A DNA stretch of 64,000 nt from a virus (IMGVR_UViG_3300025597_000613:87495-151494), one strand, 5' to 3'. Shown: positions 3,751 to 45,035, counted from the first letter of the stretch. Made by a program: numbers and translations. The notes: generated from the sequence alone by a model not told the origin.

Positions 3751-6651
3751 TTAAGCTACTTGGTATTCAACAATAACTTGGCATGAACCAGAACCTGCGT
3801 TCGTGGAGCTTGCTACTGTTGCAATTACCTGTACAGATGTACCTTCTGTTACATATGTCTCAGCTAGGTATAGACCCTGTGTCTGAGCATCGTTTTCAGC
3901 GGTTGTCATGTATGCAGATACGCTTCCTGTCTTACCGATAGACAATGTTGCTGTTGTATCAACTACAGTAACATTTACCTTAACGCTAAGAATTGTTGCA
4001 CCTGCTGGTAGAGCAGCACCAATGTTTGTTGTACCATCGGCATTCAATGGAACTGTTGCCTTAACTGCCTTGATAGCGCCAGAAGCAGCACCAGTCTGAA
4101 TTGCTTGGTCGACATAATACTTGTTGACTAGGTTTGTATCAGCTAGACCAGTTGCATAGTCTGCCGCTGTTGGACCTGAAACGTCAACCTTGTATGATGT
4201 ACCGGAAGCCAATACCATCGATGTGCTACCGGCGACCGACTGCAATGTCAATGTTGTGTTACCACGAACTGTCAATGCCTGACCTGCATCCGACTGGATC
4301 AAACCAGCGCCTGTTGGGCCAACGATAACCGATCCTGTACCGTTTGGTAGAAGAACCAAGTCACTGTTTGTAGCCAACGATGTCAAGAATGCATCTGTAC
4401 CGTCGCTTGCCAACGAAACACCGTTTGCACCACCGATTGTCAATGTATCGGTTGCACCACCGACGAATGTGAAATCTGCGGATTGAGCAAATGCTGTACC
4501 CGAAGCACCACCGAAGAATACCTGATCTTGTGTGATCGAAGTAATGTTTGTACCACCGTGGGCAATATCGACTGTATTCAACGAAACTGCACCGCTCGAT
4601 ACGCTGAACGATGTGCTGTTGAAACTTGCTACACCCTTTGTCGCTGTTGTTGCGTCAGCAGCAGTAATTGTAATGGTGTTGTTTGTTACAGTTGTCGAGA
4701 TACCCTGACCGGATGTACCAGCAATCAACAATGTTTCACCAAGTGCCAATGGATCTTGTGTACCAGCGTCAGCATTTAGCGTGATTGTGCTGTTTGCAAG
4801 CATTGCGTTTGTCACAGATGCGGCATTGATTTTCAAACCTGCCGATGTCTGGGCCAATGCACCGGCTGGATCAAGCAATAGATATAGCTTATCAGCAGAT
4901 GCTGTTCCACGAGTAGAACCATCGCTTGTTAGAATCAAGGCACCGTTTGTACCATCATAAAGATCGATACCAACTTCGTCCGAAGGAAGCTGGGCAATAC
5001 CTGCACCCAAGTTCACATCGAATGTGTTTCCTGTTAGTGTTAGACCGACACCAGCAACATATGTGCTCGAACCGGAGAATTGTACCCAGACGATATTCGA
5101 AGTACCGAGTGTTACATTGGATGTAGTTTGTACCCAACCTGTATCAGCATTTGCTGTACCAGTCTGTACGAATACTGCTGCGGAATCAAGTTCTGCACCC
5201 GAATCAGCATCTGTGGAACGAGTCCACGCACCTGCTGCAACAACATAGATACCATTTTCTGTCTGATCAGTTTGATTCTTGACCAATACGCGATTACCAG
5301 CAACGAGAGCAACACCGTCGACTGTCTGTGTACCGGACAATGTGATGTTAGCGGTAGTAGCTGCCAATACAGCGGTTTTCCATGTTAGACCTGCGGCAGT
5401 AGAATCAACATAGTTCTTTGTGGCAGCATCTTGTGCATTGACTGGTTCTGCAAGACCTGTAATGGAATTGCCACCCATTGCAAGATTGCCAGTCATTGTA
5501 TCGCCGGAAGTATTTACATAGACAGAATCCACAAGCGATGTGATATCTGCCTGAACAACTGGTGTATTTCCTGTTACACGACCAAATGTATCAAGTGTAA
5601 CCTTTACGAAGTCACCCGTGGCAGCCTGAGAAACTGTTGCAAGGTTGATGTCAGTGTTCGATGCGACACCGTCGCCGTTTGTTACAACGATATTACCTGC
5701 TGTACCAGCGATTGTTCTTGTTGTCCATGTGCCGTCGCCTGTACGAACTGAATAACCGGTTGTTGTCAGGCCTTCCACGCCTGCTAGATCATTTGCAAGT
5801 GCAAATGTTGGGTTACCAGCGACACCATCGGCGTTAGAAATTGTGATACCAGCGGATGGCTGAACCAATGAGCGCGAAGCATATGTGTCAGCACCAGTCT
5901 GAACAAGAATACCTGTATCGCTCTTTGCTGCAAGTGCTGCAAGACCTGCGTCATAACCCTGAACACCAGATGTTGCACCAGGGGCTGCTTGTGCCCAAAC
6001 GTTAGAACCGTTTGAGTAGATTACGTTGCCGATAGCCGATGAAGGGAAAATTTCATTAAGCGTATCTTTTGTCAATGCGTAGTCTGCAACCTGTTGAATT
6101 GCATTTGTTACGCTTGTTGGTGTTGAAAATACAGAACCAGTGAAAGCCGCTGCATTGAATGTGCCATCGGTGTTTACAGATGGGCCTAGAGAAGCTTCAA
6201 TGTTGTCGATTTCTGTCTGCAATGCAGTAACAGAACCGCTGGAACCAAGTGTCTGCCAAGCTGTACCATCGTAGTATTCGACTGTTGCGGCGGTAGGTGT
6301 GTCATTATTGACACGGATCATACCTGTTGCAGATGTTGGGCGTGAAGCTGTATTGCCGATTGGAGCAATGAAAGCCGCAGAACCCGAGAACTGCAATACG
6401 CCTGTTCCTTGACGGACAAGTGTGGCATCATTAAGTGTTAGATTACCTGCTGTTGCAACAAGGTTGCCTGTTGTAGCGGTAATGTTACCTGCGGACGATG
6501 TAATTCCTGCAGATGTGAGGGCGGCATCGGTAGAACCGTTTGCAGCCTTGAAGTTGAATGTACCAGCATTATTGATAATGCGTGTACCAGCCTTACCAAG
6601 CTGTAGGTCACTACCTACGCCAATAAGGCCGAAATTTTTTACGTTAGCCAT
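3751..6651 (-). CDS. Large virion structural protein (tail-fibre/decoration-like)
   Basis: 966 aa, G/T/A/S-rich beta-type composition; motifs VTLDTFGRVTG and DAATKNYVD; late promoter upstream. Confidence 0.7.
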   Translation of the reverse strand: MANVKNFGLIGVGSDLQLGKAGTRIINNAGTFNFKAANGSTDAALTSAGITSSAGNITATTGNLVATAGNLTLNDATLVRQGTGVLQFSGSAAFIAPIGNTASRPTSATGMIRVNNDTPTAATVEYYDGTAWQTLGSSGSVTALQTEIDNIEASLGPSVNTDGTFNAAAFTGSVFSTPTSVTNAIQQVADYALTKDTLNEIFPSSAIGNVIYSNGSNVWAQAAPGATSGVQGYDAGLAALAAKSDTGILVQTGADTYASRSLVQPSAGITISNADGVAGNPTFALANDLAGVEGLTTTGYSVRTGDGTWTTRTIAGTAGNIVVTNGDGVASNTDINLATVSQAATGDFVKVTLDTFGRVTGNTPVVQADITSLVDSVYVNTSGDTMTGNLAMGGNSITGLAEPVNAQDAATKNYVDSTAAGLTWKTAVLAATTANITLSGTQTVDGVALVAGNRVLVKNQTDQTENGIYVVAAGAWTRSTDADSGAELDSAAVFVQTGTANADTGWVQTTSNVTLGTSNIVWVQFSGSSTYVAGVGLTLTGNTFDVNLGAGIAQLPSDEVGIDLYDGTNGALILTSDGSTRGTASADKLYLLLDPAGALAQTSAGLKINAASVTNAMLANSTITLNADAGTQDPLALGETLLIAGTSGQGISTTVTNNTITITAADATTATKGVASFNSTSFSVSSGAVSLNTVDIAHGGTNITSITQDQVFFGGASGTAFAQSADFTFVGGATDTLTIGGANGVSLASDGTDAFLTSLATNSDLVLLPNGTGSVIVGPTGAGLIQSDAGQALTVRGNTTLTLQSVAGSTSMVLASGTSYKVDVSGPTAADYATGLADTNLVNKYYVDQAIQTGAASGAIKAVKATVPLNADGTTNIGAALPAGATILSVKVNVTVVDTTATLSIGKTGSVSAYMTTAENDAQTQGLYLAETYVTEGTSVQVIATVASSTNAGSGSCQVIVEYQVA

Positions 6652-6714
6652 GAGTTTCTCCTAATTTATAAGCCGTGCGGCCTTCAGCCAATTATTTATC
6701 CAAGAATTGTATAA

Positions 6715-8748
6715 TCATACATATGAGACGATAATTTGCGCCTGGCCGGTTGTTGCACCGCCGTTGACGAAATTCGCAGTAATGGAGACATCTCCCTGAA
6801 CTGTGTCAGTCCCGAAAAGTATATCTGTGTATGTGGTGTAAGTGCCCGATACTGTCAAGTCAGTTAAACCGATTGACATGAGACCTCCGGGCACCGGTGA
6901 TGGTGGGGATGGGTTATTTACTTGATAACCAATCTCTAATGTTGGACTACCGTCAAAAGGTGCCATGACCTCAACGGTAATCAAAGTAACTCTGCGTCCG
7001 GTGCTTAATGCACCAATTGTAAATGTTCCTGGGCTAGAACTTGTGAAGGATGACTCAAGGGATTTTGCGTCAGTTGAGGCACTGTCCTGATTACTGGTTT
7101 GTATCCAAGAAACTCCATCAAATAACCACATACTCCATTGGTTCACGTTATTACCCTGCCCGTCGTCGCTGTTAATGACATAGGCCTGATCACCCACCAA
7201 TGGTGATAGTGCATTCAATTGTGGAATATCAGCTACCACAGTTGTGGATGCGGTGCGTAGGCCCTCCTCAATGTATAGTCCACAGGCTTTGATTCCATTT
7301 TCAACGGAAATCAGTCCAAAGTCGACTACTGTGGAACCGACAACATCTAAGAAATTAATTGCTCTTGCATCAACCGCAGTGAAAACAATTTGATATGTTG
7401 AGGATGCCGGTGTTGAAAGATCCAACCCCGAACCGGAATTCAGACCTGCAAATGGTACGCCGTTGATATCATTTACAAGGTTAATAATGGTGATAGCACC
7501 ACCTGCGGTGTTTGTGATAGTCAATGTTTGTGCATTGGGCGATGTGGCAACAATATCGGGAATAGCTGCATTGTTGATAGCCTGGGCCATTTGTGGCGCC
7601 TGTGTATAATCCGTGTATCCCGGATTAGATGAGAGAATATCAAAAGTTACGGTAGTTCCGTTGATACTTGCTGATGCAGGAGACGATGCTGCATAGAGCA
7701 GAATTTCTCCATAGGTACCAGATAGATTTCCTAATTGTGTTGAAGCATCTGTGGGAATCAAAGAACGTGAAGCAGTTACGCCAGTGTTCAGTGATTGTAG
7801 ATTAACCGCGTCAACTACCGCCTGATCATCACCGGGCGCAAGAACTGTACAATCTATTCCATTTATTTGAAAAACATTATCGGCTGCTGTCGGCCCTGGC
7901 GCGGTACTTATCGAGACTGATGATGTATTATCTCTTAGCTTAATGTATAATTGGGCACCACCGGGTGTTGTTGTGACTCCACCAGGAACAGTAGTCGAGG
8001 CGTAGATAATGTTACCGACTCCGCCCGGTAGATAATCAAGATTATCTACTATCTTCTGAACAGGATTAACTGTAAACCAGCCTGGAAGAATATCCGACAC
8101 CGATGTTACTCGACCGATAACGAATTGCCTTGTTGGCCCCGATAATACAAAGGAATTCGAGCCACTATCGGCTGCAATTACATCATTTACTGCAAATGTA
8201 TTTCCGACCTGGTATAAAGGGAAATCATATTGCAGATTGATATACTCAAATCTGCTCTGTAGATTCTGCGTAAAGAATGAAGAAACACCTGCAGGTGGTA
8301 CAGGATCGATTTGGGGCAATCCGGCATCACTTGTGTTGAAAATAACATAGGTTCCCTGTGGCGGACCACCATTGCCCGAACCAGATGGATCCCTAAATGT
8401 ATTATATCGATAGATATCCTGTACAATTGCAACAACTTCTGTATTTGTCTTAGATGAGATGCTAATAATTTGCCAAGCCTGTCCACTTGTTACGTTGGCA
8501 ATCCATTGTCCAACGGTAACATCTTGCCCTTCATACATACCGGGCTGACGAGTTAAATAGGAACTCTGTTGCTGTGGTGAAATTACCAAGGTGACACTCC
8601 AACGAAAATCTTTCTGTACAGGAGTTGGATAAGGGTTACCCGGTTGTACAGGAAAATCAGTCGGATTATACCATGGCATTGTTTCAACGCCGATGACTGC
8701 TGTCACATCAGCCTGAATTGCCTTAAGTGGAGTGTTTAAAAAGGCCAT
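6715..8748 (-). CDS. Virion structural protein (baseplate/tail-associated)
   Basis: 677 aa, within the late structural operon. Confidence 0.6.
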   Translation of the reverse strand: MAFLNTPLKAIQADVTAVIGVETMPWYNPTDFPVQPGNPYPTPVQKDFRWSVTLVISPQQQSSYLTRQPGMYEGQDVTVGQWIANVTSGQAWQIISISSKTNTEVVAIVQDIYRYNTFRDPSGSGNGGPPQGTYVIFNTSDAGLPQIDPVPPAGVSSFFTQNLQSRFEYINLQYDFPLYQVGNTFAVNDVIAADSGSNSFVLSGPTRQFVIGRVTSVSDILPGWFTVNPVQKIVDNLDYLPGGVGNIIYASTTVPGGVTTTPGGAQLYIKLRDNTSSVSISTAPGPTAADNVFQINGIDCTVLAPGDDQAVVDAVNLQSLNTGVTASRSLIPTDASTQLGNLSGTYGEILLYAASSPASASINGTTVTFDILSSNPGYTDYTQAPQMAQAINNAAIPDIVATSPNAQTLTITNTAGGAITIINLVNDINGVPFAGLNSGSGLDLSTPASSTYQIVFTAVDARAINFLDVVGSTVVDFGLISVENGIKACGLYIEEGLRTASTTVVADIPQLNALSPLVGDQAYVINSDDGQGNNVNQWSMWLFDGVSWIQTSNQDSASTDAKSLESSFTSSSPGTFTIGALSTGRRVTLITVEVMAPFDGSPTLEIGYQVNNPSPPSPVPGGLMSIGLTDLTVSGTYTTYTDILFGTDTVQGDVSITANFVNGGATTGQAQIIVSYV

Positions 8749-11498: not shown

Positions 11499-13715
11499 TT
11501 AGACTAAAACAGGAACTTCTTCATTTGAATAGCATCTAACCACGATTCCGTTGACATCAATATCGATGACAACTCGTCCACCCTTAAGGAGCTTACCAAA
11601 CAGGATTTCCTTGGACAACGGCTTCATGATTTCATTCTCAAAAAGTCGGTTGAAGGGTCTTGCACCCATCTTAGGATCCAGTCCCTTAGTGGCAAGCCAT
11701 TCAGTTGCCTGGGCGGTTACCGCGAAGATAATATTCTTGCTGGCAAGAATATTACGAGTATCCTCAATCTTCGAATTAACAATGAGTCTCATTTCCTCGA
11801 TGCCGAGCTTATTGAATTTAACAATAGCGTCGAGTCGGTTTCGGAATTCCGGACTAAACAGTCTCTTCAATTCAGTATCTACAGCAACGCTGTTATCCTG
11901 ATTGCCAAAACCAATGCGATTTCTTTCGGCTTCGGCAGCACCGGCATTAGCAGACATGATAAGAACCACGTTGGAGAAGTCAACAGTCTTACCCTTGCTG
12001 GATGTCAACCGTGCATCATCCATAACCTGGAGAAGAATTGTAAACACCTCTGGGTGTGCCTTCTCAATTTCGTCGAGCAATAGAACACACGAAGGATTAG
12101 CATCAATCTCTGCAATAAGCTGTCCTTCGCCCATCTTGCCTTCGCCGTGACCCACATAGCCCGGAGGGGCACCGATGAGTCGAGAAACCGTATGCTTTTC
12201 CATGTATTCCGACATATCAAAGCGCACAAGCTTGACACCCATCAATTCGGCAAGTTTCTTCGCAGCGAAGGTCTTACCAGAACCAGTGGGTCCAGTGAAC
12301 AAGAAATTACCAATGGGCTTGTTTGTAGCACGCAATCCTGCCTTAGACATGTAGATAGCTTCCACAAGGCTTACGATAGCAGCATCCTGGCCGTATACAA
12401 TATCCTTCAGCTTGGTTTCAAGATTGGCGAGCTGGGTATTTTCCTTCTGGTCAATCTTATCAACAGGGATACGGGCAATCTTTGCCGCACACTTGGTAAC
12501 GACATCATCAGTTACCGTGGCCAAATCATTCAACTTGGCATAAGCACCCGCCGCATCCATAATATCCATAGCCTTGTCAGGGAAGAACTTATTCTTCATG
12601 TAACGATCGGCAAGGCTAACACACAGGTCGGTAGTACCTTCCATGTATGTCACATTATGGAATTTTTCGTAATGCTTGGTAACACCGCGCAGAATTTCCT
12701 TTGTTTGCTCAGCAGTGGGCTGATTCACATCGTACTTCTGGAAACGACGCAGCAGAGCCTTGTCTTTTTCGAAGTGTTCGTGGAATTCATCGTAGGTGGT
12801 AGCACCGACGCACATCAGCTGACCTTTTGCCAACATAGGCTTCAGCAGGTTACCAGCATCCATTGTGCTACCGCTTGTGGAACCTGCACCGAGAATCATG
12901 TGAATCTCATCAATGAACATAATGACATTGCCGAGCTTCTTAACTTCATCCAGTACAGCCTTGAGTCGTTCTTCAAAATCGCCTCGGAACTTAGTTCCTG
13001 CAATCAAAGCACCAATATCGAGACTATGGACAACTTTCTCCTGCAGGGCCTTAGGAACTTCCTTGTTGACAATCTTCAACGCCAGACCTTCGGCGAGTGC
13101 AGTCTTACCCACGCCCGGTTCACCCACATAGATAACATTATTCTTCTTACGACGAGCAAGAATCTCAATAGTATCCAACACTTCACGCTCACGACCAATT
13201 ACCGGGTCAATGGAACCATCGCTTGCTTCCTTATTTAGGTTGCGAGCATACAGTGCAAGGGCGCTTTCTTCCTTGCCTTCAGATTTTTCGCTACCCTTAC
13301 GAAGATGGGTGATAATCTTCTCTCTAGTCACACCACTCTTAGCAAGATAGTAATGTGCATGACTGGTATCTTCACTAAGAATGCTCAGCAGGATAGCCTC
13401 GAGCGTGAGCTCATTGCGACCACTGAAAATAAGTTGGGTAAAAGCTCGTTGGAAAGTACGATTTAGAACCTGTGTTCTCTTTGCAGGAACATCCTTCAGC
13501 GAATCCGGCTTCTTCATCTCCGGGTTACCGAGGAACTGCACAAGCTCAGTCTTAATCTTTGCAGGTTGGCCACCAATGGCCAGAATCAAATCTTGAATTT
13601 CCTTCTCACTAAGCAAAGAAAGTAAAAGGTGCTCAAGCGTCACATATTCGTGATTGTTATCATTGGCGATACCAATTGCACGAGCAACCATTTTATCAAC
13701 TTTTTGTGTACTCAT
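11499..13715 (-). CDS. clpA: ATP-dependent Clp protease ATP-binding subunit ClpA
   Basis: N-domain EHLLL; two AAA+ modules ([16 protein letters not shown]); [11 protein letters not shown]; IGF loop; no ClpB middle domain. Confidence 0.95.
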
Positions 13716-36852: not shown

Positions 36853-37201
36853 CCTCAGTGCTAAGGTATTCGGGATCGGCAGTCTTATCAAGATGTTCAA
36901 GAATGATTCTATCATATCCATATGTAATTGCATACTGGATAACATCTGCAAGAATAACTTCTTTCTCCATTGTGGAAATCCACAATGTACGATAAGGATC
37001 GACTTCTTCGTAACCCTCTAATACAGCAATCGATTTATCAAGATATTCCTGTACACTTGTAAAGGTTTCATTATATGTGCCAAGGGCTGCTTCAAGGATC
37101 TCTGTGTCCTGAATAACCTGGATGGTCTTGATAATTTTACCTGTTTGGTCAGCAACGGTATAGTCTGTGCCAAGGTCGTCGATTCTCGTAATTTTATACA
37201 T
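36836..37201 (-). CDS. Hypothetical acidic protein
   Basis: Likely start MYKITR after AAGGA. Confidence 0.7.
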   Translation of the reverse strand: MYKITRIDDLGTDYTVADQTGKIIKTIQVIQDTEILEAALGTYNETFTSVQEYLDKSIAVLEGYEEVDPYRTLWISTMEKEVILADVIQYAITYGYDRIILEHLDKTADPEYLSTEVDDEE

Positions 37202-37751
37202 TTTGGTTGATCCTTGCATTAATAATTGTCCAATCGATAATCTTCCAGATATTGGCAAGATATTTTTCCTTATCCGCACCATAGTCGATTATAAATGAAT
37301 GCTCCCACATATCAATAATTACTGCAACATCGTCTACGACCTTGTGATTTACGATGGTTTTGATAGTGCCTTTTGTGTCTAGATATACCCAGCCTGAACC
37401 GTGTATTTCTAGTGCAGCGTTCTTAATGGAGTCTTTGAAATTCTCAAAGCTTCCAAATTTCTTTTCGATTAGAATTTTGGAAGCATCCGAGGGTCTATTA
37501 TTGGCCTTCGATGCCTGAAATTGCTCGAAGAACAATGTGTGTAATTTTGCGCCCGCTACTTGAAATTCTCCTTCGCCGGCGTGTGCCTTCTCGACATATT
37601 TTTTGTACAGAGTGCCATAATGCAAAGAAATTGCTTCTTCGCTGAATACTGGTTTCAATTGGGATTGGGATACCGGTAACTTGATTTGGTAAACTTCTTC
37701 CTCAGCTTTCACCTTCTCTATTAAAGTACGGAAGGATAGATCTTTTGTCAT
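37194..37751 (-). CDS. Fe/Mn superoxide dismutase (divergent)
   Basis: Metal ligands in SLHYG, KLHTLFF and DMWEH; FGSFENFK and HGSGW motifs. Confidence 0.85.
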   Translation of the reverse strand: MTKDLSFRTLIEKVKAEEEVYQIKLPVSQSQLKPVFSEEAISLHYGTLYKKYVEKAHAGEGEFQVAGAKLHTLFFEQFQASKANNRPSDASKILIEKKFGSFENFKDSIKNAALEIHGSGWVYLDTKGTIKTIVNHKVVDDVAVIIDMWEHSFIIDYGADKEKYLANIWKIIDWTIINARINQNV

Positions 37752-37759
37752 ACTACTAT

Positions 37760-38791
37760 TTATGGAAATTGCAAGAACTTGGTTTTGTTATCGTAAAACC
37801 TTTTGACACCGACAAGACGTTCAAGCACTGCCCTGTCGACGACATCTTGCGTAAAGTCCTTTATTTTAGCAAGTTTTTCTGCATTTGTAAACGAATCAAG
37901 TTGTAGATCCTGCACATTCACTGAGGCGTCTGACAAAATTGACCCATAAATGGACGGTGTAAATGTTACATTTCCCTTTCCATAAATGATATTTCTGTAG
38001 TTTACACTGAAATCATAATTCTCGGAGGCAGGGTACAATGATACGATAGAATTAAAATTTCTTCCCGCACAATCTGTAACACCTAGTAATTCGATATTCG
38101 AATCTGAATGCACCTGGAATCTATTTTCATCTATGACGTTTGATGCTCCACGACCGAACATTGCATGTGTGTATGAAGAATTCTCCTGTGTTATTACATT
38201 TCTATAATTGAAAGAAATAGCACTGGAATTATTCTTATAGAATGTCGAAAGGGCCAACCTAGCCCTCGGCTGTAGAATGTAATTGACTACGGCGTTTAAA
38301 GCACATTGGCTCTCCACCTCCTCAACAATTTCTGCATCGAGATCTTCGCCGAGATTGAATACAAGAACTGAATTGTAGAAGGTTTCGTAATCAGTCCTAT
38401 ATTTGACATAGATGGGTTCATCCACCGGACCATTAATACTGAACATGGTATGATTCTGACACACCAAGTAGGCAATGGTAGAAAACGTCTCGGGATTATA
38501 GAGACTACGTGGGTTCTTATTTTCTTTATTCTCAAGTGAATTTGTTATGACCACATTCTTGTGATCATATAATTCCTTGCTAATATGAATTTCGTTACCC
38601 ATAATGATAACTGCTAATCCAGGAAGACCTGGATCCACAATCATCTGAGTCTTATTATTTTGAATATAGAAACGCTGCTCGAAAAATGTATCGAGGTTAG
38701 ATCTTTGATACTTATCCTGTGTGGCTGAGTAGAGGAGCTCTGGATAATATTTTCCGAGGAATGATTTTATTTGAATTAGAGTTGTCGACAT
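37760..38791 (-). CDS. SufD/SufB-like beta-helix protein (divergent)
   Basis: Repetitive short beta-strand pattern resembling the SufBD core; late promoter at 38815. Confidence 0.45.
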   Translation of the reverse strand: MSTTLIQIKSFLGKYYPELLYSATQDKYQRSNLDTFFEQRFYIQNNKTQMIVDPGLPGLAVIIMGNEIHISKELYDHKNVVITNSLENKENKNPRSLYNPETFSTIAYLVCQNHTMFSINGPVDEPIYVKYRTDYETFYNSVLVFNLGEDLDAEIVEEVESQCALNAVVNYILQPRARLALSTFYKNNSSAISFNYRNVITQENSSYTHAMFGRGASNVIDENRFQVHSDSNIELLGVTDCAGRNFNSIVSLYPASENYDFSVNYRNIIYGKGNVTFTPSIYGSILSDASVNVQDLQLDSFTNAEKLAKIKDFTQDVVDRAVLERLVGVKRFYDNKTKFLQFP

Positions 38792-38823
38792 GTATTTCTC
38801 GTATCACTACGAGATATTTATTG

Positions 38824-39141
38824 TTATAGTTCTTCGTAAGTGGCAGTTAGCGGAAATCCGTTGGCCCGTGCATATGCTACGGTCTCAAGAGTCTTCTCTT
38901 CGGCAATTTCCTTGGTGTAAGGAGAACCGGCGATGCCCTGTCCTTGAACGTGGATAGTCTGGGTCAGCAGAATAGCGTCTTCTACCGTTCTATGAAAAAT
39001 GCGAACCAAAACTTCAATCACAAACTGAAAGGTAGTCGAATCATCGTTATGGAGCAATACCTTATACATCTTAGGTATCTTTACCTGAATCGTGTCTTCA
39101 ACACGCTCAATAACTTCGATATCTGGTTGAGTTGTTGCCAT
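38824..39141 (-). CDS. clpS: Clp protease adaptor ClpS
   Basis: PKMYKVLLHNDDSTTFQFV...IH..G..IAG...EIAEEK...GFPL. Confidence 0.93.
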   Translation of the reverse strand: MATTQPDIEVIERVEDTIQVKIPKMYKVLLHNDDSTTFQFVIEVLVRIFHRTVEDAILLTQTIHVQGQGIAGSPYTKEIAEEKTLETVAYARANGFPLTATYEEL

Positions 39142-39150
39142 ATGGAAAAT

Positions 39151-39196
39151 CCCCGGGTTATAGGTTGATTCTACATTGCCCGGGGTCTAAAGTCAA
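39151..39196 (-). promoter_or_regulatory. sigma70 promoter inside an inverted repeat that covers the clpS SD
   Basis: TTGACT-N17-TAGAAT; arms CCCCGGG/CCCGGGG followed by ATTTT. Confidence 0.75.
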
Positions 39197-39202
39197 CTAA
39201 TC

Positions 39203-39613
39203 TTATTTGATAGCGATAAGCTTAGGTTGTGCTTCCTCGGGCACATTCTTCTTGAAGACGACAGTCAAAATACCATCTTCGAGTGTTGCTTCCGCAATCT
39301 CGAAGTATTCTGCCATCTTAAACTTCTTCTCAAAAGAACGCTTACCAATACCACGGAACTGGTACTGCTCTTCGGGCTGTGATTCCTTTACGCCCTTTAC
39401 AGTCAGTAGACTTTCGTGTTCCTCAAGTGTGATTTCACTCTTCCTAAATCCTGCAACAGCAAGTTCTAGAACAAGTTCGGTATCACTTCTCTTGATGATA
39501 TTGTGTGGTGGATAGCTTGTAGATTCAAATTGGAATTCCCTGAATAGGGGCCCGAAACCTACAGTTAGTTGGTCAAGTCTGTCAAATAGACGGTCAAATT
39601 CATTTCTAGACAT
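39203..39613 (-). CDS. Small heat shock protein (IbpA/Hsp20)
   Basis: YPPHNIIK...LELAVAGF...RGIGKRSFEKKF...A.LEDGILTV. Confidence 0.93.
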   Translation of the reverse strand: MSRNEFDRLFDRLDQLTVGFGPLFREFQFESTSYPPHNIIKRSDTELVLELAVAGFRKSEITLEEHESLLTVKGVKESQPEEQYQFRGIGKRSFEKKFKMAEYFEIAEATLEDGILTVVFKKNVPEEAQPKLIAIK

Positions 39614-39712: not shown

Positions 39713-40534
39713 TTAGAGAGGGGTATACTTGAAACTTTTTACCCACATTGTGCGTTCGACAGCGATTGTGGCCTTTCCGCCCCAATCTTCGTTGTCGGTG
39801 CCCCAATGATTGATCATTACCTTGGCTGCCTCGGTCGGCACAACCTTGGTATGAGTTCCAATCAGAGCATTATCTCTGTAGAATTCAATTTTGCCCGGCA
39901 TCCAGACAAATTTATATGAATGAAACCCCTGATGTGGAAGATCATCATTCGATGCCGGCGCTACATCAGTATGTTCGTTCGGATTAGATTCACCCACCCA
40001 GCTTGTTAGTTGAGTTGCTCGATTTCTAATTCCACCCTCGACTTCAAAGTCAATTTCAGTCTTAGCACCATCAAGGTAGATAAAACATCCTGTAATGGAT
40101 CCACTTACAGGCGTACCCGGACCATCTGCGGTAGTTGCAGTGGAACTTGCGCGGGCAACCCATTCAAAAGTGCCATATTGGAAACTATCAACTGTGGCAA
40201 TTTCGGCACCCTTAGAGGATACGCCGTATGACATTGCCGCTTGATTCAATTTGAGACACAAAATTCCGTCTACAATTGAGACATTTTTTGCTAAAAACGT
40301 GCCCTTGTGCGTAGCTGAACCGCCCGGTGCTGTCCAGGTAGAAACCACCCATTTTGCAGGATCTAGCTTACCGGAAGAAAAATCTTCCACAAAGGTTGGT
40401 TCTTTTACCACTACGGGTGGTAATGGTGCCGGCGCGGGAGCCGGAATAGGTGCGGGTGCGGGAGCCGGAATAGGTGCCGGTGCCTTATTTCTTCCAAGTA
40501 ATTTATCTAACAGCCTTTTCAATGCTTTCATCAT
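39713..40534 (-). CDS. Glycoside hydrolase family 16 with an N-terminal Pro/Ala linker
   Basis: EIDFE catalytic motif, FHSYKFVW, INHWG; start MMKALK after GAGGA. Confidence 0.88.
   Translation of the reverse strand: MMKALKRLLDKLLGRNKAPAPIPAPAPAPIPAPAPAPLPPVVVKEPTFVEDFSSGKLDPAKWVVSTWTAPGGSATHKGTFLAKNVSIVDGILCLKLNQAAMSYGVSSKGAEIATVDSFQYGTFEWVARASSTATTADGPGTPVSGSITGCFIYLDGAKTEIDFEVEGGIRNRATQLTSWVGESNPNEHTDVAPASNDDLPHQGFHSYKFVWMPGKIEFYRDNALIGTHTKVVPTEAAKVMINHWGTDNEDWGGKATIAVERTMWVKSFKYTPL
40434..40477. repeat. 24-nt-period tandem repeat encoding APIPAPAP
   Basis: gcgggagccggaataggtgc at 40434 and 40458. Confidence 0.85.
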
Positions 40535-41288
40535 GTTTACATTCCTCGAGATTACCTGTCTCAACCATGGAGCGCAGGTCTGCAATCGTGCAGTTACCGT
40601 CAATATTTATCCGACGAATCTCCAAGGGAGACATACCTTTGGTATTTTTAGTGACAGAATTAACCATCACAGTTGATGAATACCCTGTGTTACCCGCAAA
40701 CTTCACAGCTTCGGGCCTACTATATCCAAACGGCCATGAGAGAGATGTAACAGGCTTACCGGTAACCTGTTCGAGAATAATCTTCGACATTGCAACCTCA
40801 CCTGCCATGATGCGAAAATCAATCTTATCAAGTTGTGTCTGCCATTCAAGAAAATGAGTATGCGTATGCGCACCAATCTCAAATCTATCATTCTGGGCAA
40901 GCGCCGATACTTCTTCTGCCGTCAGGTATTGCGGATCATCAAATGCCCCGCTAATGATATACAACGTGGCCTTTGAATTATAGGCATTCAAAGATTTAAC
41001 AGCGTTAAAGGTAGATCTCCAACCATCATCAATAGTAATTGCTACACTCTTCTCCGGAACGCGCAATTCACCCTTCATGAATTTTTCAACTTCTTTAATT
41101 GTAAGAGTGGTATATCCCTGATCCTTCAGGAATTTCACATGTTCCTCAAATCGAGATTTGCTAATAACGGTACCACCGGGATTTTTATCATCCGTAATTT
41201 GATGGTACATCAATACAGGAACAAATTGTTCGCTGGCAATTGAAATCTGAGAAATGAGTGAAAGTGCGGCTGCAATTACAATTTTCAT
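40503..41288 (-). CDS. Secreted polysaccharide deacetylase (CE4, IcaB/PgaB-like)
   Basis: Signal peptide MKIVIAAALSL; VLMYHQI, TIDDGW, GAHTHTH, WPFG. Confidence 0.9.
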   Translation of the reverse strand: MKIVIAAALSLISQISIASEQFVPVLMYHQITDDKNPGGTVISKSRFEEHVKFLKDQGYTTLTIKEVEKFMKGELRVPEKSVAITIDDGWRSTFNAVKSLNAYNSKATLYIISGAFDDPQYLTAEEVSALAQNDRFEIGAHTHTHFLEWQTQLDKIDFRIMAGEVAMSKIILEQVTGKPVTSLSWPFGYSRPEAVKFAGNTGYSSTVMVNSVTKNTKGMSPLEIRRINIDGNCTIADLRSMVETGNLEECKHDESIEKAVR

Positions 41289-41629
41289 TTGATTATTACT
41301 TTCGATGTGGAACAACAGTCCATTAGTTCTTGATAGACTTCAGGTTCTATATTGACACATCCGGCTGTAACTGTCACCCGGTGCTGTGCATACGGGCTTC
41401 TTAATCTTGCGATTCTCTGCTGACCTGGAATATCCAATACACGGTGGATGGCATAGACGCCATTCTCATCATGTTTGAAAACGAGAAGATCCCCGCCGTA
41501 GCGAGGATCTATGATCGAATAAGGGGCAAGAGTATATTCGCCCCTTGGTGTATCATAACCTACCAAAGCGTTATGACATGTTCCGGCAAAGCAGATTATC
41601 GCCGCAGCGATATCTACTAGTACCTCCAT
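41285..41629 (-). CDS. L,D-transpeptidase-like (YkuD) catalytic domain
   Basis: TPRGEY...AIHRV...TAGCVN. Confidence 0.7.
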   Translation of the reverse strand: MEVLVDIAAAIICFAGTCHNALVGYDTPRGEYTLAPYSIIDPRYGGDLLVFKHDENGVYAIHRVLDIPGQQRIARLRSPYAQHRVTVTAGCVNIEPEVYQELMDCCSTSKVIIK

Positions 41630-41632
41630 ATC

Positions 41633-41929
41633 TTAACCCTTAATACAGCCACGAACCTTTAGGATACCGCGATCCTTTGGTGTTAACTTCGCAAGTTCGG
41701 CCTTGGTAAGTTTATCAGCCGGAGGGCACAAAGGCTCAACAGGCTTCAGAACAACTGGCGCAGGTGCAGGTGCCGGTGCGGCAACTACTACTGGCGCAGG
41801 GGGTGGAGGTGGAGGGACCTCCTTAGGAATAACGGTTGCAACACCTACTGCCACGGCTACCGGTACAAGGACCGGAAAGCGCATCAGAAAGTTGACAACC
41901 GTTGCGTTACCAGCAACGGGCATTGTCAT
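41633..41929 (-). CDS. Membrane-anchored Pro-rich protein with a C-terminal Cys pair
   Basis: Hydrophobic segment, PPPPPPAP linker, C-x27-C. Confidence 0.7.
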   Translation of the reverse strand: MTMPVAGNATVVNFLMRFPVLVPVAVAVGVATVIPKEVPPPPPPAPVVVAAPAPAPAPVVLKPVEPLCPPADKLTKAELAKLTPKDRGILKVRGCIKG

Positions 41930-41938
41930 AATTTTTCC

Positions 41939-42397
41939 TTATTTCTTCAGATTCCAACCAAACCAGTAGCTGGCATAGACTTGCACGCCAGAACCGGAAA
42001 CAGGACCAGTGACTTCAGGACCGACATTGAAATGACGTTCATGAACTGCCTGAACACCGAGATTCAGCACACCGTGATCGAAATCACGAACAAGCTTTAC
42101 ACCGACCGCAGGAACCAACTTGTTGTTATAATCCAACTTATTCTTATCCATGCTATAGCCAAAAGAGGCATAGGTGTTGAGCTTCCACTTGTCAGAAACT
42201 TTCATCCAATCAATACCTTGCTCAACTTTACCCTGCAGGAGGATATTGTTGTCTTCCTTGGTGCCCTTAATAACACCGGGACTGAAGGTCAATTCAGACC
42301 AATTCGAACCAGGATAGCCCAGGGGCTCGGCGGCCATAGCACCCATCGACGCGAGAGCCAGAATGACACCGGCGATAGCAAAACGAGACTTCTTCAT
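41939..42397 (-). CDS. Small outer-membrane beta-barrel protein
   Basis: Signal peptide ending AMA; alternating amphipathic strands; C-terminal YASYWFGWNL. Confidence 0.75.
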   Translation of the reverse strand: MKKSRFAIAGVILALASMGAMAAEPLGYPGSNWSELTFSPGVIKGTKEDNNILLQGKVEQGIDWMKVSDKWKLNTYASFGYSMDKNKLDYNNKLVPAVGVKLVRDFDHGVLNLGVQAVHERHFNVGPEVTGPVSGSGVQVYASYWFGWNLKK

Positions 42398-42408
42398 AAT
42401 TACCTTTC

Positions 42409-43467
42409 TTAGTTAGTGTGTGAATCGAAACTGTACCTCTTGACTTTGTTCCATGCCAAGATTTCTTTACGCTGAATTACAATTTCGAAGAATGATTTCA
42501 TAAAAGCGTAGAAGTTATAAAACCCCAACCAGTAGTATACAGGATGTTTATAGATAACGTCAAGCCGTCCTGTACGCCAAGCACAATAACATGCAATCAA
42601 GAATGAAACACCATAATCAATTGCCATGATACCGAATAGCATCGGGGTGTAGAAAATACCTACAAGGGCCAACCAGAATAAACGATTAAAGATAACCGCA
42701 TCAAGTGTGAGCAAGATTAGATACCAATCAACCCGTTGCTTTTTGCTAAAACCGAAAACATTGTGCTTCTTAATGACTTGCCAGAATCCACGATACCATC
42801 GTGTCATCTGTTTTCCATAATCACGGAAGGTTGATGGATCCTGTGTATATACAATTGCATCCGGTACATATTCAACACGCTTTCCGTGCCTATGAACCTG
42901 CATGGTAAGATCCATATCTTCTGCCAGTGTCTTCGGATCAATGTCCAGTTCGGACAATACCTTTGTATTGTACATCGAAGAACAACCCGGGCCCACAAAT
43001 ACCACATTGAAATTAGATTGTCCCTGTTTTGCAATATCCTGACCATACGTATAATCATACGCACGGAGTGATGAAAACAGATGATTATTTTCTGCAGATT
43101 TAACCTGGCCGAGATAAAGACCCACATCGGGATTAGCTTCGGCAGCGCCACGCATCTTCATCATGAAGAGTGGATCAACTTTGGTATCACCGTCAAAGAA
43201 GATGATCCAATCATATCTCTTCAGTAATTGAAAATACACAAGTGCTTGGCGCTGGGCATTTGCCTTTCCGCCATTTTCCGGCACTGTATACACATTTACA
43301 CCCGTGGCGGATGCAAGCTTTGCTGTATTGTCTGTGGAGCGGTCATCCACAATATAGATATCGGATTTTGCACATCCAGAACGGATTAATGAATCAATTG
43401 TCGCCTCGATGACAACTTCTTCATTATACGCAGGGATTAAAACAGCAATAGTAGGAAATGTGTTCAA
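42409..43467 (-). CDS. Processive GT2 glycan synthase (IcaA/PgaC/NodC/BcsA-like)
   Basis: IPAYNEE, VDDRSTD, FFDGD, LAEDMD, QMTRW (D,D,D,QxxRW) and C-terminal TM helices; likely TTG start at 43467. Confidence 0.92.
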   Translation of the reverse strand: MNTFPTIAVLIPAYNEEVVIEATIDSLIRSGCAKSDIYIVDDRSTDNTAKLASATGVNVYTVPENGGKANAQRQALVYFQLLKRYDWIIFFDGDTKVDPLFMMKMRGAAEANPDVGLYLGQVKSAENNHLFSSLRAYDYTYGQDIAKQGQSNFNVVFVGPGCSSMYNTKVLSELDIDPKTLAEDMDLTMQVHRHGKRVEYVPDAIVYTQDPSTFRDYGKQMTRWYRGFWQVIKKHNVFGFSKKQRVDWYLILLTLDAVIFNRLFWLALVGIFYTPMLFGIMAIDYGVSFLIACYCAWRTGRLDVIYKHPVYYWLGFYNFYAFMKSFFEIVIQRKEILAWNKVKRYSFDSHTN

Positions 43468-43492
43468 GGCGTTACACCCGTAAATTTCCGTT

Positions 43493-43532
43493 ACTATAAA
43501 ATAAAAGAGGGCATACGTCAAGCCCTCTTTTT
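43493..43532 (-). promoter_or_regulatory. Terminator after rpsU overlapping the sigma70 promoter of the GT2 operon
   Basis: AAAAGAGGGC-TTGACGTAT-GCCCTCTTTT; TTGACG-N17-TATAGT with the -35 in the loop. Confidence 0.8.
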
Positions 43533-43549: not shown

Positions 43550-43810
43550 TCAGTAGCGTTTATCTTTGTGCCACATACCTGCAGAGATCATTTCCTCGAC
43601 TGTTCTTTCCCAGCGTTTGCGAGCTTGCTTCTTCAGCCTCTGACGCTTTACAGCAGGTGGTTCGTAAGACATCCTATCTTTTACTTCCTTTAGGATGCCT
43701 GTATCTTGGACTTTTTTCGACCAGGTACGCAATGCACGACCGAAATCATCCCCACGGACCTCAACTGTGAGGCCCTTATGTCTCTTACCTTCTTTATATC
43801 GATTACTCAT
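43550..43810 (-). CDS. rpsU: Ribosomal protein bS21 homologue
   Basis: [43 protein letters not shown]. Confidence 0.85.
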
Positions 43811-45035
43811 TATTTGCTCGTTTCGTTGAACGCTTTGTCTTGTATACATATTTCACTGCGCCGCGTGAATCTACTGCAACAGTCGAAACCCCATCTTTCG
43901 CTAACCTAGGCAGGGTAAATTGTACTGCCTGTAGATCTTTCTCAAGAATGGAGCGCAGACCACGTGCGCCAACCTTCTGTCGCAGACACTCCTCTGCAAC
44001 ATTCTGTAGGTATTTATCATCGAAGTCCAAAGTAACACCCTCATACTTGAAAAGTGCCTTAAATTGACTAATGATGCTATTCTTAGGTTCCTTCAAGATC
44101 TTAACAAGCATGTCAACGGTAAGGTCGTCGAAGACAACCGTTACAGGACAACGACCGACAAATTCAGGGATTAATCCATATTTTATAAAATCTTCAGGAA
44201 TAACACTTGATACAGTATCAGAGAATGAAGATTTTACATTCAGAGTTGCACCAATCCCGATGCTTGTCTTGGATCTATTCTTTCGAATTAGTTCATCCAG
44301 GCCAACAAATGCACCACTGCAAATAAACAATACGTCCTTTGTGTCAAATTCGATCTCGGAACCTTCGGCGTCTTCAAATTTAACAATTGTTCCTTCAATC
44401 ATTTTTAGAAGTGCCTGCTGAACACCTTCGCCGGAAACATCTCTACTTAATGTGGAGGATTCACTTTTTCTGGATTTCTTATCAATTTCATCAATAAAAA
44501 TAATGCCATGCTGAGCACGTTCTAAATCCTCTCCAGAATTTTCATAGAGCCTTTTGATAAGATTTTCTACGTCTTCACCGACATATCCTGCTTCGGTTAT
44601 CGTAGTAGCATCAGCAATTACATAGGGAATGTCATAAAGTCTTGAAATTGTTTTGACTGTAAGAGTTTTGCCAGAACCACTGGCACCCACCATTAACAGA
44701 TTTGATTTATCAATCTCTACATCTTTATTCTTGTTGTTTACTCTTTTGAAATGATTGTATACAGCAACAGAAATTGCAATTTTTGCTTTATCTTGCCCCA
44801 CGATATAATCGTCAAGATATGCCTTGATATCTTCCGGAGTAGGTAATTTTTCTTTCTTTTTCTTAGTAACCTTCTGTTCAGAATCCTGGGTTAATACATC
44901 ATGACTGAATTTAACACATTCATCGCAAATATACAGAAGGCTACCATTAAACATCGGGCCCTCAATCATGTGCTGAACTTCGTGTCTACCCTTACCGCAG
45001 AATGAGCAGGTGATATTCTTATTCTCTGTTGTCAT
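43803..45035 (-). CDS. clpX: ATP-dependent Clp protease ATP-binding subunit ClpX
   Basis: C4 zinc domain; GASGSGKT; AGYVGEDVE; [14 protein letters not shown]; IGF loop reads IGI. Confidence 0.95.

Follow-up and report, generated by a model that had tools for sequence, protein, structure and literature searches.

A well-conserved phage-borne gene cassette predicted to encode a variant of synthase-dependent polysaccharide secretion

Can a bacteriophage bring with it the machinery for secreting a polysaccharide from its host? The question is raised by a cassette of six genes in a 64,000-nucleotide (nt) stretch of viral DNA from IMG/VR (IMGVR_UViG_3300025597_000613, positions 87495-151494), which is called the window here and from whose first letter all window coordinates are counted. 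An initial annotation, made from the sequence alone, had read these genes as an operon for the synthesis and remodelling of a surface polysaccharide. As it described, all six open reading frames (ORFs) lie co-oriented and close-packed on the minus strand; they run nearly gapless across 39713-43521, with a coding span of 39713-43467 after revision of the first start codon. In order of transcription, they are:

42409..43467, minus strand: putatively processive membrane GT2 synthase, 352 aa when counted from the TTG proposed as its start codon
41939..42397, minus strand: secreted six-strand half-barrel, 152 aa with signal peptide, about 130 aa mature
41633..41929, minus strand: small membrane protein, 98 aa, with a conserved N-terminal motif, one transmembrane (TM) helix and a Pro-rich linker
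41288..41629, minus strand: YkuD-related (L,D-transpeptidase/Tlde1-like) Cys enzyme, 114 aa
40503..41288, minus strand: secreted CE4 polysaccharide deacetylase, 261 aa
39713..40534, minus strand: GH16 glycanase, 273 aa, with a basic amphipathic N-terminal helix and a Pro/Ala-rich linker

We regard this phage-borne variant of synthase-dependent polysaccharide secretion as real and well conserved, with a function that is entirely predicted. The reading that we favour, with moderate confidence, is that the cassette constitutes a self-contained, phage-carried secretion system of this type, which would place a new polymer containing N-acetylglucosamine (GlcNAc) on the surface of the infected cell.

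Six products and the roles they suggest

The synthase carries the motifs DDRS41, DGD92, EDMD183 and QMTRW220, followed by a hydrophobic block at residues 251-295, which confirms the D,D,D,QxxRW signature with TM helices that had been noted for this gene. The TM block is C-terminal, and there is no N-terminal TM helix. DD, DGD, EDMD, QxxRW and an additional WNKVKR are kept in nine phage orthologs and in one cellular copy (L015), and the D, DxD, ED and QxxRW motifs are invariant in eight aligned sequences, one of them cellular. Pfam returned Glyco_tranf_2_3 (8.5e-27) and Chitin_synth_2 (8e-6), and NCBIfam returned PgaC_IcaA (7.7e-27), NodC (1.6e-19) and CelA (2e-10). The nearest solved relatives were hyaluronan synthases (7sp7, 2.9e-14), with BcsA also matched. 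We infer that the enzyme is processive; by its profile matches it appears related to PgaC/IcaA and NodC and a member of neither equivalog.

Two further products belong to recognised families of polymer-modifying enzymes. The deacetylase exceeded the cut-off of Pfam Polysacc_deac_1 (9.8e-17; 61.5 bits vs 23.1) and matched the NCBIfam models PgaB (8.6e-21), PdaB (4e-11) and IcaB (2.9e-9). It contains DDGW87 and HTHTH141, and its orthologs, most of which have signal peptides, keep DDGW, HxxxH, WPxG and a C-terminal pair of Cys residues. The glycanase exceeded the Glyco_hydro_16 cut-off (1.4e-13; 51.2 bits vs 22) and matched ExoK (9.4e-20) and BglS (4.4e-15) in NCBIfam, its nearest solved relatives being bacterial 1,3-1,4-beta-glucanases. 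The EIDFE motif for which it had been singled out is present at position 160, and TE[IV]DxEVEG is invariant in eight sequences.

The half-barrel had no match in Pfam, PHROGs or NCBIfam. It shows a Sec-type N-terminus, an amphipathic strand pattern and a conserved YWFGW last strand; such N-termini were seen on both the barrel and the deacetylase, in agreement with the signal peptides assigned to them before. An AlphaFold2 model built from an alignment of 28 homologs (pLDDT 87) places six long antiparallel strands after the signal peptide, in an open sheet, and a Foldseek search of the PDB with this single chain gave no match at E ≤ 1e-3, the weak rows being outer-membrane barrels only. A family profile searched against 1.84 billion representative proteins collected 340 relatives. 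Many are tandem duplicates of 260-300 aa, and in some the N-terminus bears a LysM, SPOR or AMIN domain, types that all bind peptidoglycan. By these profile matches, the small barrel appears to be a member of an uncatalogued family.

The tandem relatives indicate how such a half-barrel might be completed. The model of one tandem homolog (pLDDT 90.8, pTM 0.81) is a closed 12-strand barrel, and the best 50 of its 74 Foldseek rows below 1e-3 in the PDB are outer-membrane barrels, including PgaA (4y25, 4e-5), the porin for poly-N-acetylglucosamine (PNAG). With VIA-align, nearly all of the 50 matches listed are membrane beta-barrels, the best being Hbp (Z 11.6), PcoB (Z 11.4; root-mean-square deviation 4.0 over 188 residues) and OmpG (Z 10.8). 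KdgM (Z 10.0) and NanC (Z 8.6), 12-strand sugar channels, also resemble the predicted pore, although they are single-chain import channels. Consistent with these results, the Atlas neighbours of the phage barrel are outer-membrane barrel families.

When two mature copies of the phage barrel were co-folded, the homodimer score was 0.67, compared with 0.01 for the best control; in the calibration of this score, 21 of 30 proteins with a solved homodimer structure attained its mark, compared with 0 of 23 whose structure is a single chain. Three runs had at least 35% of contacts in common, with a partner pLDDT of at least 68. The predicted interface is symmetric, strand 27-44 of one copy lying against strand 135-151 of the other, and it is the same seam that the tandem proteins close covalently. 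In the models, a closed barrel arises only as a tandem protein or a dimer. The phage protein is thus predicted to homodimerise into a 12-strand outer-membrane pore. The barrel had earlier been judged too small for export unless it oligomerised, and both the closed tandem homologs and the control-passing homodimer, as predictions, agree with that view; the accompanying suggestion of a new minimal architecture seems fair.

Neither Pfam nor PHROGs nor NCBIfam had a match for the small membrane protein, whose TM helix is assigned by hydropathy. In the window it ends in a basic tail with a final K-G, and all phage copies end in a basic [KR]-G tail. The tails read IKG, KIKG, KKKRRG, KKKKKG and KKVRG (window 41633-41650 and L003-L007). 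The gene for the YkuD-like enzyme begins 4-15 nt after that of the TM protein. A fusion of the two by read-through or frameshift was considered and rejected: the stop codon of the first and the ATG of the second share a frame in the window and L003, and do not in L004-L006.

For the YkuD-like enzyme itself, the strongest match was phrog_38499 (6.8e-35), a family of unknown function. Pfam YkuD (PF03734) matched the window copy at 0.0084 (17.1 bits, below the cut-off of 23.4) and, at E ≤ 0.1, 10 of 13 orthologs, at best with 2.4e-5. Across the 13 orthologs, H62, T88-A-G-C91-V-N93 and four more Cys residues are invariant; we take His...[S/T]-x-G-C-[IV]-[RN] to be the catalytic motif of YkuD. The enzyme falls in an Atlas cluster of about 640 mostly viral members, which has clusters of L,D-transpeptidases and of Tlde1 as its neighbours. 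When the PDB was searched with a sequence profile of the alignment, no L,D-transpeptidase and nothing meaningful came up. A relationship of the 114-aa enzyme to YkuD is likely on these motifs and matches, and formal Pfam membership falls short.

The combination of synthase, deacetylase, outer-membrane barrel and hydrolase, in which the initial annotation recognised the layout of exopolysaccharide systems, is supported in silico at the level of roles. In the mechanism we propose, host RNA polymerase would transcribe the cassette from its sigma-70-type promoter. The inner-membrane GT2 enzyme, judging by its family, would polymerise a beta-linked chain from a host UDP-sugar, most likely UDP-GlcNAc, and push it through its own C-terminal TM channel. 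From the conserved gene order, the TM/Pro-rich protein would be an accessory subunit of the synthase or a link that spans the periplasm. In the periplasm, the CE4 enzyme may remove part of the acetyl groups and the GH16 enzyme may trim the chain (compare the N-terminal domain of PgaB, BcsZ and PelA). Two six-strand barrel copies, paired first strand to last, are predicted to form the 12-strand outer-membrane pore by which the polymer would leave. The YkuD-related enzyme probably acts on the peptidoglycan around the machine; speculatively, it could anchor the pore, by its C-terminal Lys, or the TM protein covalently, in place of LysM, SPOR or AMIN domains.

A graded gene set in viruses and cells

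Two scans of IMG/VR yielded 21 distinct viral loci with a related GT2 gene (37-66% identity), on contigs of up to 358 kb and with a GC content of 0.36-0.60. The barrel gene adjoins the GT2 gene in all 21, which disposes of the concern, voiced at the outset, that the genes might not co-occur in other genomes. A YkuD-like gene is found in 14 loci, CE4 in 8 and GH16 within the cassette in 7; L068 has one more GH16 gene, some 3 kb upstream and in the opposite orientation. The closest relatives hold all six genes at the same site, between ClpX-S21 and Hsp20/ClpS; in L008, L009 and L012 the gene order is rearranged and the genes are retained. Catalytic motifs are conserved at 45-70% protein identity. 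The six-gene unit that had been proposed therefore holds in part: GT2, barrel and, usually, the small TM protein form its core, YkuD is a frequent partner, and CE4 and GH16 are common accessories instead of obligatory members.

A parallel module occurs in cells. Searching one genome per species with the GT2 alignment as query, we found GT2-(CE4)-barrel arrangements, with a single or tandem barrel, in Adler-, Kaiser- and Yanofskybacteria, in three Acidobacteriota and on one contig binned as an archaeon, and GT2 with CE4 in Saccharibacteria and Paceibacteria; in Kaiserbacteria and Saccharibacteria, the CE4 gene is the direct neighbour of GT2. The cellular GT2 genes had no YkuD-like or GH16 gene beside them; among the sampled loci, only phage or phage-like contigs carry these two. 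In 8 of 8 cellular loci checked, the barrel gene is followed by one for a small protein that can be aligned at its N-terminus with the Pro-rich protein of the phage; the two share an invariant Pro and a near-invariant Gly ahead of a TM helix, and the Kaiserbacteria protein has a Pro-rich linker as well. The motif is short, and homology between the cellular and phage proteins is likely. The Pro-rich spacer of the initial annotation is thus present, as more than a mere spacer: it appears to be a conserved subunit of a trio with GT2 and barrel. This trio, with or without CE4, seems from gene content to be a cellular module in bacteria of the Candidate Phyla Radiation (CPR) and in Acidobacteriota.

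In a tree of GT2 sequences, 18 of 20 viral members group together (support 85/89); the other two stand among sequences from CPR bacteria and Acidobacteriota, and more than one exchange between cells and viruses therefore seems to have taken place. The direction of transfer is not readable from this tree, which is unrooted.

Several individual loci illustrate how the module varies. P0070, a protein with LysM and two barrel units on a 193-kb contig, matches in sequence the Yanofskybacteria locus L021; its gene lies two genes downstream of that for a 347-aa GT2, which is 39% identical to the phage GT2 over its full length, with a small TM protein nearby. Barrel-family members stand beside GT2 in metagenome-assembled genomes (MAGs) of CPR/Patescibacteria at L015:8001-9497, L021, L022:11823-12554, L033:11815-12573 and L020:11062-11535. 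Among these, the L015/L021 copy has LysM; family members from metagenomes have LysM, SPOR or AMIN. An apparent GT2-barrel fusion, P0132, on a contig of 2.3 kb, has the look of a chimeric or truncated gene call and was set aside as evidence. AFDB lists a 635-aa GT2 protein that matches the barrel at its C-terminus.

On the viral side, L055:6989-8537, on a 49-kb viral contig (GC 0.59), holds GT2 and barrel alone, inserted between primase/VapE and EndoVII/DUF2800/PolA-like genes, and the pair therefore also travels in ordinary-sized phages. In L065, a phage lineage with a GC content of 0.37, the cassette comprises GT2, barrel and YkuD, with no CE4 or GH16 within 7 kb; upstream of GT2 it has a Gcw_chp gene (5967-6743; Pfam 2.5e-41), presumably of another outer-membrane barrel family. 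A 17-kb phage-like contig binned in an 'uncultured Polaromonas' MAG (L019:10434-13994) has a cassette with a 1186-aa GlxA-like protein of the copper radical oxidase type (Pfam GO-like_E_set 3e-18, Glyoxal_oxid_N 8e-7). Its gene lies between two identical pairs of barrel and TM-protein genes, a repeat that may be an assembly artefact. The protein recalls the CslA-GlxA glycan system of Streptomyces.

The phage barrel is devoid of the peptidoglycan-binding domains found on its cellular homologs. Lys is the conserved last residue of barrels of its type: 34 of 41 close homologs end in it (NLKK, NLGK, NLK), compared with only 18 of 52 single-domain members at a greater distance and 15 of 96 that are tandem or fused. 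L,D-transpeptidases attach Lpp, the inner-membrane protein OutB and a reporter to peptidoglycan through a C-terminal Lys, which is both required and enough for the linkage (PMC12274547). Anchoring to the wall is suggested because cellular barrels bind the wall, close barrels of the phage type end in Lys, and Lys serves L,D-transpeptidases in the way just cited. In those attachment systems, as in the cassette, a YkuD-type enzyme occurs with envelope proteins that end in Lys; unlike their L,D-transpeptidases, the phage enzyme consists of one minimal domain of 114 aa, with neither the customary signal peptide nor a peptidoglycan-binding domain, and its anchoring role is only proposed. That it anchors the pore to the wall is a speculative step, which we consider possible at best. 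We put forward just as tentatively the wider idea that GT2, TM protein and half or tandem barrel make up an undescribed secretion class, and that phages took it over and equipped it with a minimal L,D-transpeptidase, which would staple the pore and/or the TM protein to peptidoglycan. If true, the infected cell would receive from the phage an export machine that spans the envelope and is fixed to the wall.

Nature of the polymer and competing explanations

Because the better GT2 matches all use UDP-GlcNAc and the CE4 enzyme is nearest to PgaB/IcaB, our best guess for the product is a GlcNAc-containing, partly de-N-acetylated beta-glycan.

A number of observations weigh against the favoured reading or against parts of it. 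The polymer, the expression of the genes and the localisation of the proteins are all at the stage of prediction. GT2 scores 94.3 bits with PgaC_IcaA (TIGR03937; cut-off 422.3) and 70.2 bits with NodC (TIGR04242; cut-off 550), and since it is so far below both equivalog cut-offs, any assignment of sugar and linkage is tentative. GH16 enzymes are known for beta-1,3/beta-1,4 glucans and galactans, not for PNAG, and would fit a beta-1,6-GlcNAc chain poorly. The family also includes fungal chitin transglycosylases, and a chitin- or chitosan-like chain would reconcile GT2, CE4 and GH16. No receptor for cyclic di-GMP (PilZ, PgaD-type, Alg44, PelD or MshEN) was detected by Pfam and NCBIfam on the six proteins, where a divergent one is possible; the absence of a receptor would be an advantage to a phage whose machine has to work from the moment of its synthesis. 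Neither barrel nor TM protein has a TPR or other Pfam domain. Members of the barrel family are also present in CPR bacteria, a group generally considered to lack an outer membrane, and this is awkward for an outer-membrane pore as the reading of the whole family. The C-terminal Lys of the barrel tracks the YkuD-like gene weakly in the viral loci (12 of 14 with it vs 4 of 8 without), and the close Lys-ending homologs form one clade.

Access to the periplasm poses a further difficulty of this kind. The window copies of both the YkuD-like enzyme and the GH16 enzyme have no Sec signal, in the former case no cleavable one. The N-terminal 19 residues of the YkuD-like protein have a Kyte-Doolittle value of 1.65, similar to that of the CE4 signal peptide. 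Its orthologs in L008 and L009 have a classical signal peptide, and there the equivalent N-terminal segment is charged; in copies without a signal this segment is uncharged and rich in Ala and Gly. From this pattern, export of the signal-anchor-release type is conceivable. Among GH16 orthologs, that of L019 has a signal peptide and that of L006 a TM anchor, and the window enzyme may gain access to the polymer only when infection is far advanced, or take another route.

The same machine could make a beta-glucan instead, be it mixed-linkage 1,3-1,4, curdlan-like or cellulose-like, with the GH16 enzyme as its cognate lichenase-type trimmer and the CE4 enzyme acting as an O-deacetylase or elsewhere, for example on peptidoglycan. 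The ExDxE motif of GH16 and its closeness to ExoK, BglS and solved 1,3-1,4-beta-glucanases fit such a product, as do the GT2 matches to cellulose synthase models and BcsA and the many viral and cellular versions of the module without CE4; bacterial GT2 synthases of (1,3;1,4)-beta-glucan exist (PMC10374906). We nevertheless rate a glucan as rather unlikely: the best GT2 families are all GlcNAc polymerases (PgaC/IcaA, NodC, Chitin_synth_2 and hyaluronan synthases), ahead of CelA by 7-17 orders of E-value, and the CE4 enzyme, nearest to the PNAG deacetylases PgaB and IcaB, recurs beside GT2 in Kaiserbacteria and Saccharibacteria. A polymer kept in the periplasm or wall, where it would act with the YkuD-like enzyme to stiffen or re-shape the envelope for the long infection by a giant phage, would account for YkuD being a commoner partner of GT2 and barrel (14 loci) than CE4 (8) or GH16 (8), for the peptidoglycan-binding domains of cellular barrel homologs and for the proteostasis and stress genes at the flanks. 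It sits badly with a transmembrane beta-barrel that is always paired with a processive synthase, a hallmark of export across the outer membrane, and with the likeness of the tandem barrel model to outer-membrane channels, and such envelope remodelling seems to us quite improbable.

Short products have also to be considered. A GT2 enzyme working as a NodC-like oligosaccharide synthase could release short, partly deacetylated chito-oligosaccharides as a signal or decoy; NodC is its second-best family (1.6e-19), its pairing with CE4 mirrors NodC-NodB, and it is small (352 aa) and without N-terminal TM helices. However, NodB is cytoplasmic and the phage CE4 enzyme is secreted, a dedicated outer-membrane barrel and a glycanase typify polymer systems, and the NodC cut-off is missed widely (70 vs 550 bits), all of which leaves this reading of the cassette with very little probability. 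Still less can be said for the view that the genes are a piece of host DNA carried along as a passenger, or an artefact of binning or assembly, and play no part in the biology of the phage. The GC content of the cassette is slightly above that of its flanks (0.44-0.46 vs about 0.41), and the related contig L019 was binned into a Polaromonas MAG, but many independent viral contigs and samples share the insertion site, the flanks and intact motifs at 45-70% identity, and the clustering of 18 of 20 viral GT2 sequences (support 85/89) points the same way. We regard this explanation as close to refuted.

A secretion system for a GlcNAc-containing polymer, the reading we retain, has its closest known counterpart in PgaABCD/IcaADBC. 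As far as the phage proteins can be predicted, both have a processive QxxRW-type GT2, with PgaC/IcaA as the best NCBIfam match of the phage enzyme, and a secreted CE4 enzyme. Both also pair the synthase with a small membrane protein, export through a beta-barrel in the outer membrane and include a glycoside hydrolase. The phage proteins nevertheless score far under the equivalog cut-offs. PgaA has 16 strands and TPR, whereas the phage pore is a predicted homodimer of six-strand halves (12 strands) without TPR; the hydrolase of PgaB is a GH153 domain, whereas that of the phage is a separate GH16 protein; no PgaD-type partner that binds cyclic di-GMP is recognisable in the cassette; and the cassette adds a YkuD-related enzyme and is borne by a phage. 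With the synthase-dependent class as a whole (Pga, Bcs, Alg, Pel, Nfr), the cassette shares a GT2 enzyme that, by its motifs, has D, DxD, ED, QxxRW and a TM block, and a predicted outer-membrane-type barrel encoded with the synthase. As to periplasmic polymer-modifying enzymes, the picture is mixed: CE4 has a signal peptide and its motifs, and GH16 has ExDxE and, in the window copy, no export signal. No periplasmic TPR scaffold or receptor for cyclic di-GMP was recognised, and the cassette is set apart by its predicted split 12-strand pore without TPR, small TM subunit, GH16 and YkuD.

Viral precedents are of other kinds. Chloroviruses encode a GT2 enzyme that makes the infected cell extrude a GlcNAc-containing polymer on its surface, as described in two reviews (PMC5408694, PMC7019647). 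Like the phage synthase, their hyaluronan and chitin synthases (PBCV-1 A98R and relatives) are virus-encoded processive GT2 enzymes, and hyaluronan synthases are the nearest solved relatives of the phage GT2. Unlike it, they come from viruses of a eukaryotic alga that carry the synthase gene alone, with no pore, deacetylase, hydrolase or wall enzyme to accompany it. A survey of jumbo phages (Iyer et al. 2021, PMC7824862) lists only glycosyltransferase clusters of the O-antigen or capsule type, with a proposed role in blocking the attachment of rival phages. GtrABC seroconversion and the cyanophage 'LPS/capsule' clusters (LPS, lipopolysaccharide; PMC7824862) likewise alter host surface carbohydrates with phage genes; they differ in that non-processive transferases decorate O-antigen or build nucleotide sugars and oligosaccharides, with no outer-membrane pore of their own. 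Our literature search found no report of a phage-borne PNAG, chitin or synthase-dependent polysaccharide secretion system.

If the favoured reading is right, a bacteriophage makes its host secrete a new surface polymer with four to six genes of its own, and matrix production joins the effects of phages on their hosts, which is relevant to activated sludge and to flocs that depend on exopolysaccharides. The secretion system would be very compact and apparently signal-independent, and it could lend itself to transfer into laboratory strains. It would include a new split outer-membrane pore family and a new small synthase subunit, both common to CPR bacteria and Acidobacteriota, and it would offer a testable role for the minimal YkuD/Tlde1-like phage enzymes of the Atlas cluster described above, which have no known function. 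A lytic lifestyle, receptor masking, exclusion of other phages and protection from grazing are conjecture.

Transcription signals and genomic setting

Two overlapping signals precede the cassette:

43506..43528, minus strand: intrinsic terminator hairpin after rpsU, stem of about 10 bp, U-run at 43505-43499
43493..43521, minus strand: sigma-70-like promoter TTGACG-N17-TATAGT with its -35 element in the terminator loop, 10 of 12 positions in the promoter scan

The hairpin starts directly after the rpsU stop codon. Its predicted RNA fold has -15.5 kcal/mol (z -4.63), and 0 of 200 shuffled sequences were equally stable, which together with the U-run confirms the terminator that had been proposed to insulate the cassette from rpsU. 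Like hairpins lie upstream of the GT2 gene in L002, L003, L004, L007, L008, L009 and L010.

The region contains 13 promoter-like sites against 10.1 expected, that is, no excess over chance. The TTGACG-N17-TATAGT promoter of the initial annotation is present at 43521-43493, and it is credible because its layout of -35 element, 17-nt spacer and -10 element, fused to a terminator, recurs in related phages: TTGACT-17-TATAGT precedes the orthologous GT2 genes of L002, L004 and L010, and TTGATT-17-TATTAT that of L003. In these four, the -35 element lies inside a hairpin with a stem sequence unlike that of the window. L012 has the near-consensus TTGACA-18-TATAAT upstream of GT2. Most likely, a polymerase of the sigma-70 type transcribes the cassette as a separate unit. 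The rpsU terminator and the cassette promoter share bases (window 43493-43528), an arrangement found in at least four related phages with differing stems, which suggests a compact terminate-and-restart signal.

These signals also bear on the gene start. TTG 43521, from which the synthase had been read before, sits in the terminator loop and is the -35 hexamer, and it was rejected as a start codon; the start is most likely TTG 43467, just ahead of the first beta-strand of the GT-A fold, as in orthologs. The CE4 gene starts at ATG 41288, overlapping the stop codon of the YkuD-like gene as ATGA, and GH16 starts at about 40534, overlapping the end of CE4.

The source record holds 211,620 bp and was judged 55% complete, and the full genome is probably larger. 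Other genes of the window encode structural proteins of the phage, a DNA ligase, a ribonucleotide reductase, NAMPT and a Lon-like protease. GenBank phages gave no match when searched for near-identical DNA, and tblastn of the same phages with GT2 found only distant GT2 sequences (<30% identity), many in records that resemble bacterial contigs. ARAGORN detected no tRNA anywhere in the 64,000-nt window. Activated-sludge and sludge metagenomes from two studies contain 0.73-0.78 of the sampled words of the phage DNA; no RNA data set was listed as containing the cassette or its GT2 gene.

The cassette is flanked by ClpX and ribosomal protein S21 on one side and by Hsp20, ClpS, SufBD-like and Fe/Mn-SOD-like proteins on the other. 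These proteostasis and stress genes surround it as a conserved block (window 37194-39613 and 43550-45035), with the Lon-like protease further on at 11499-13715. As listed, the S21 ORF runs into the end of ClpX, and the true start of S21 is probably an internal Met.

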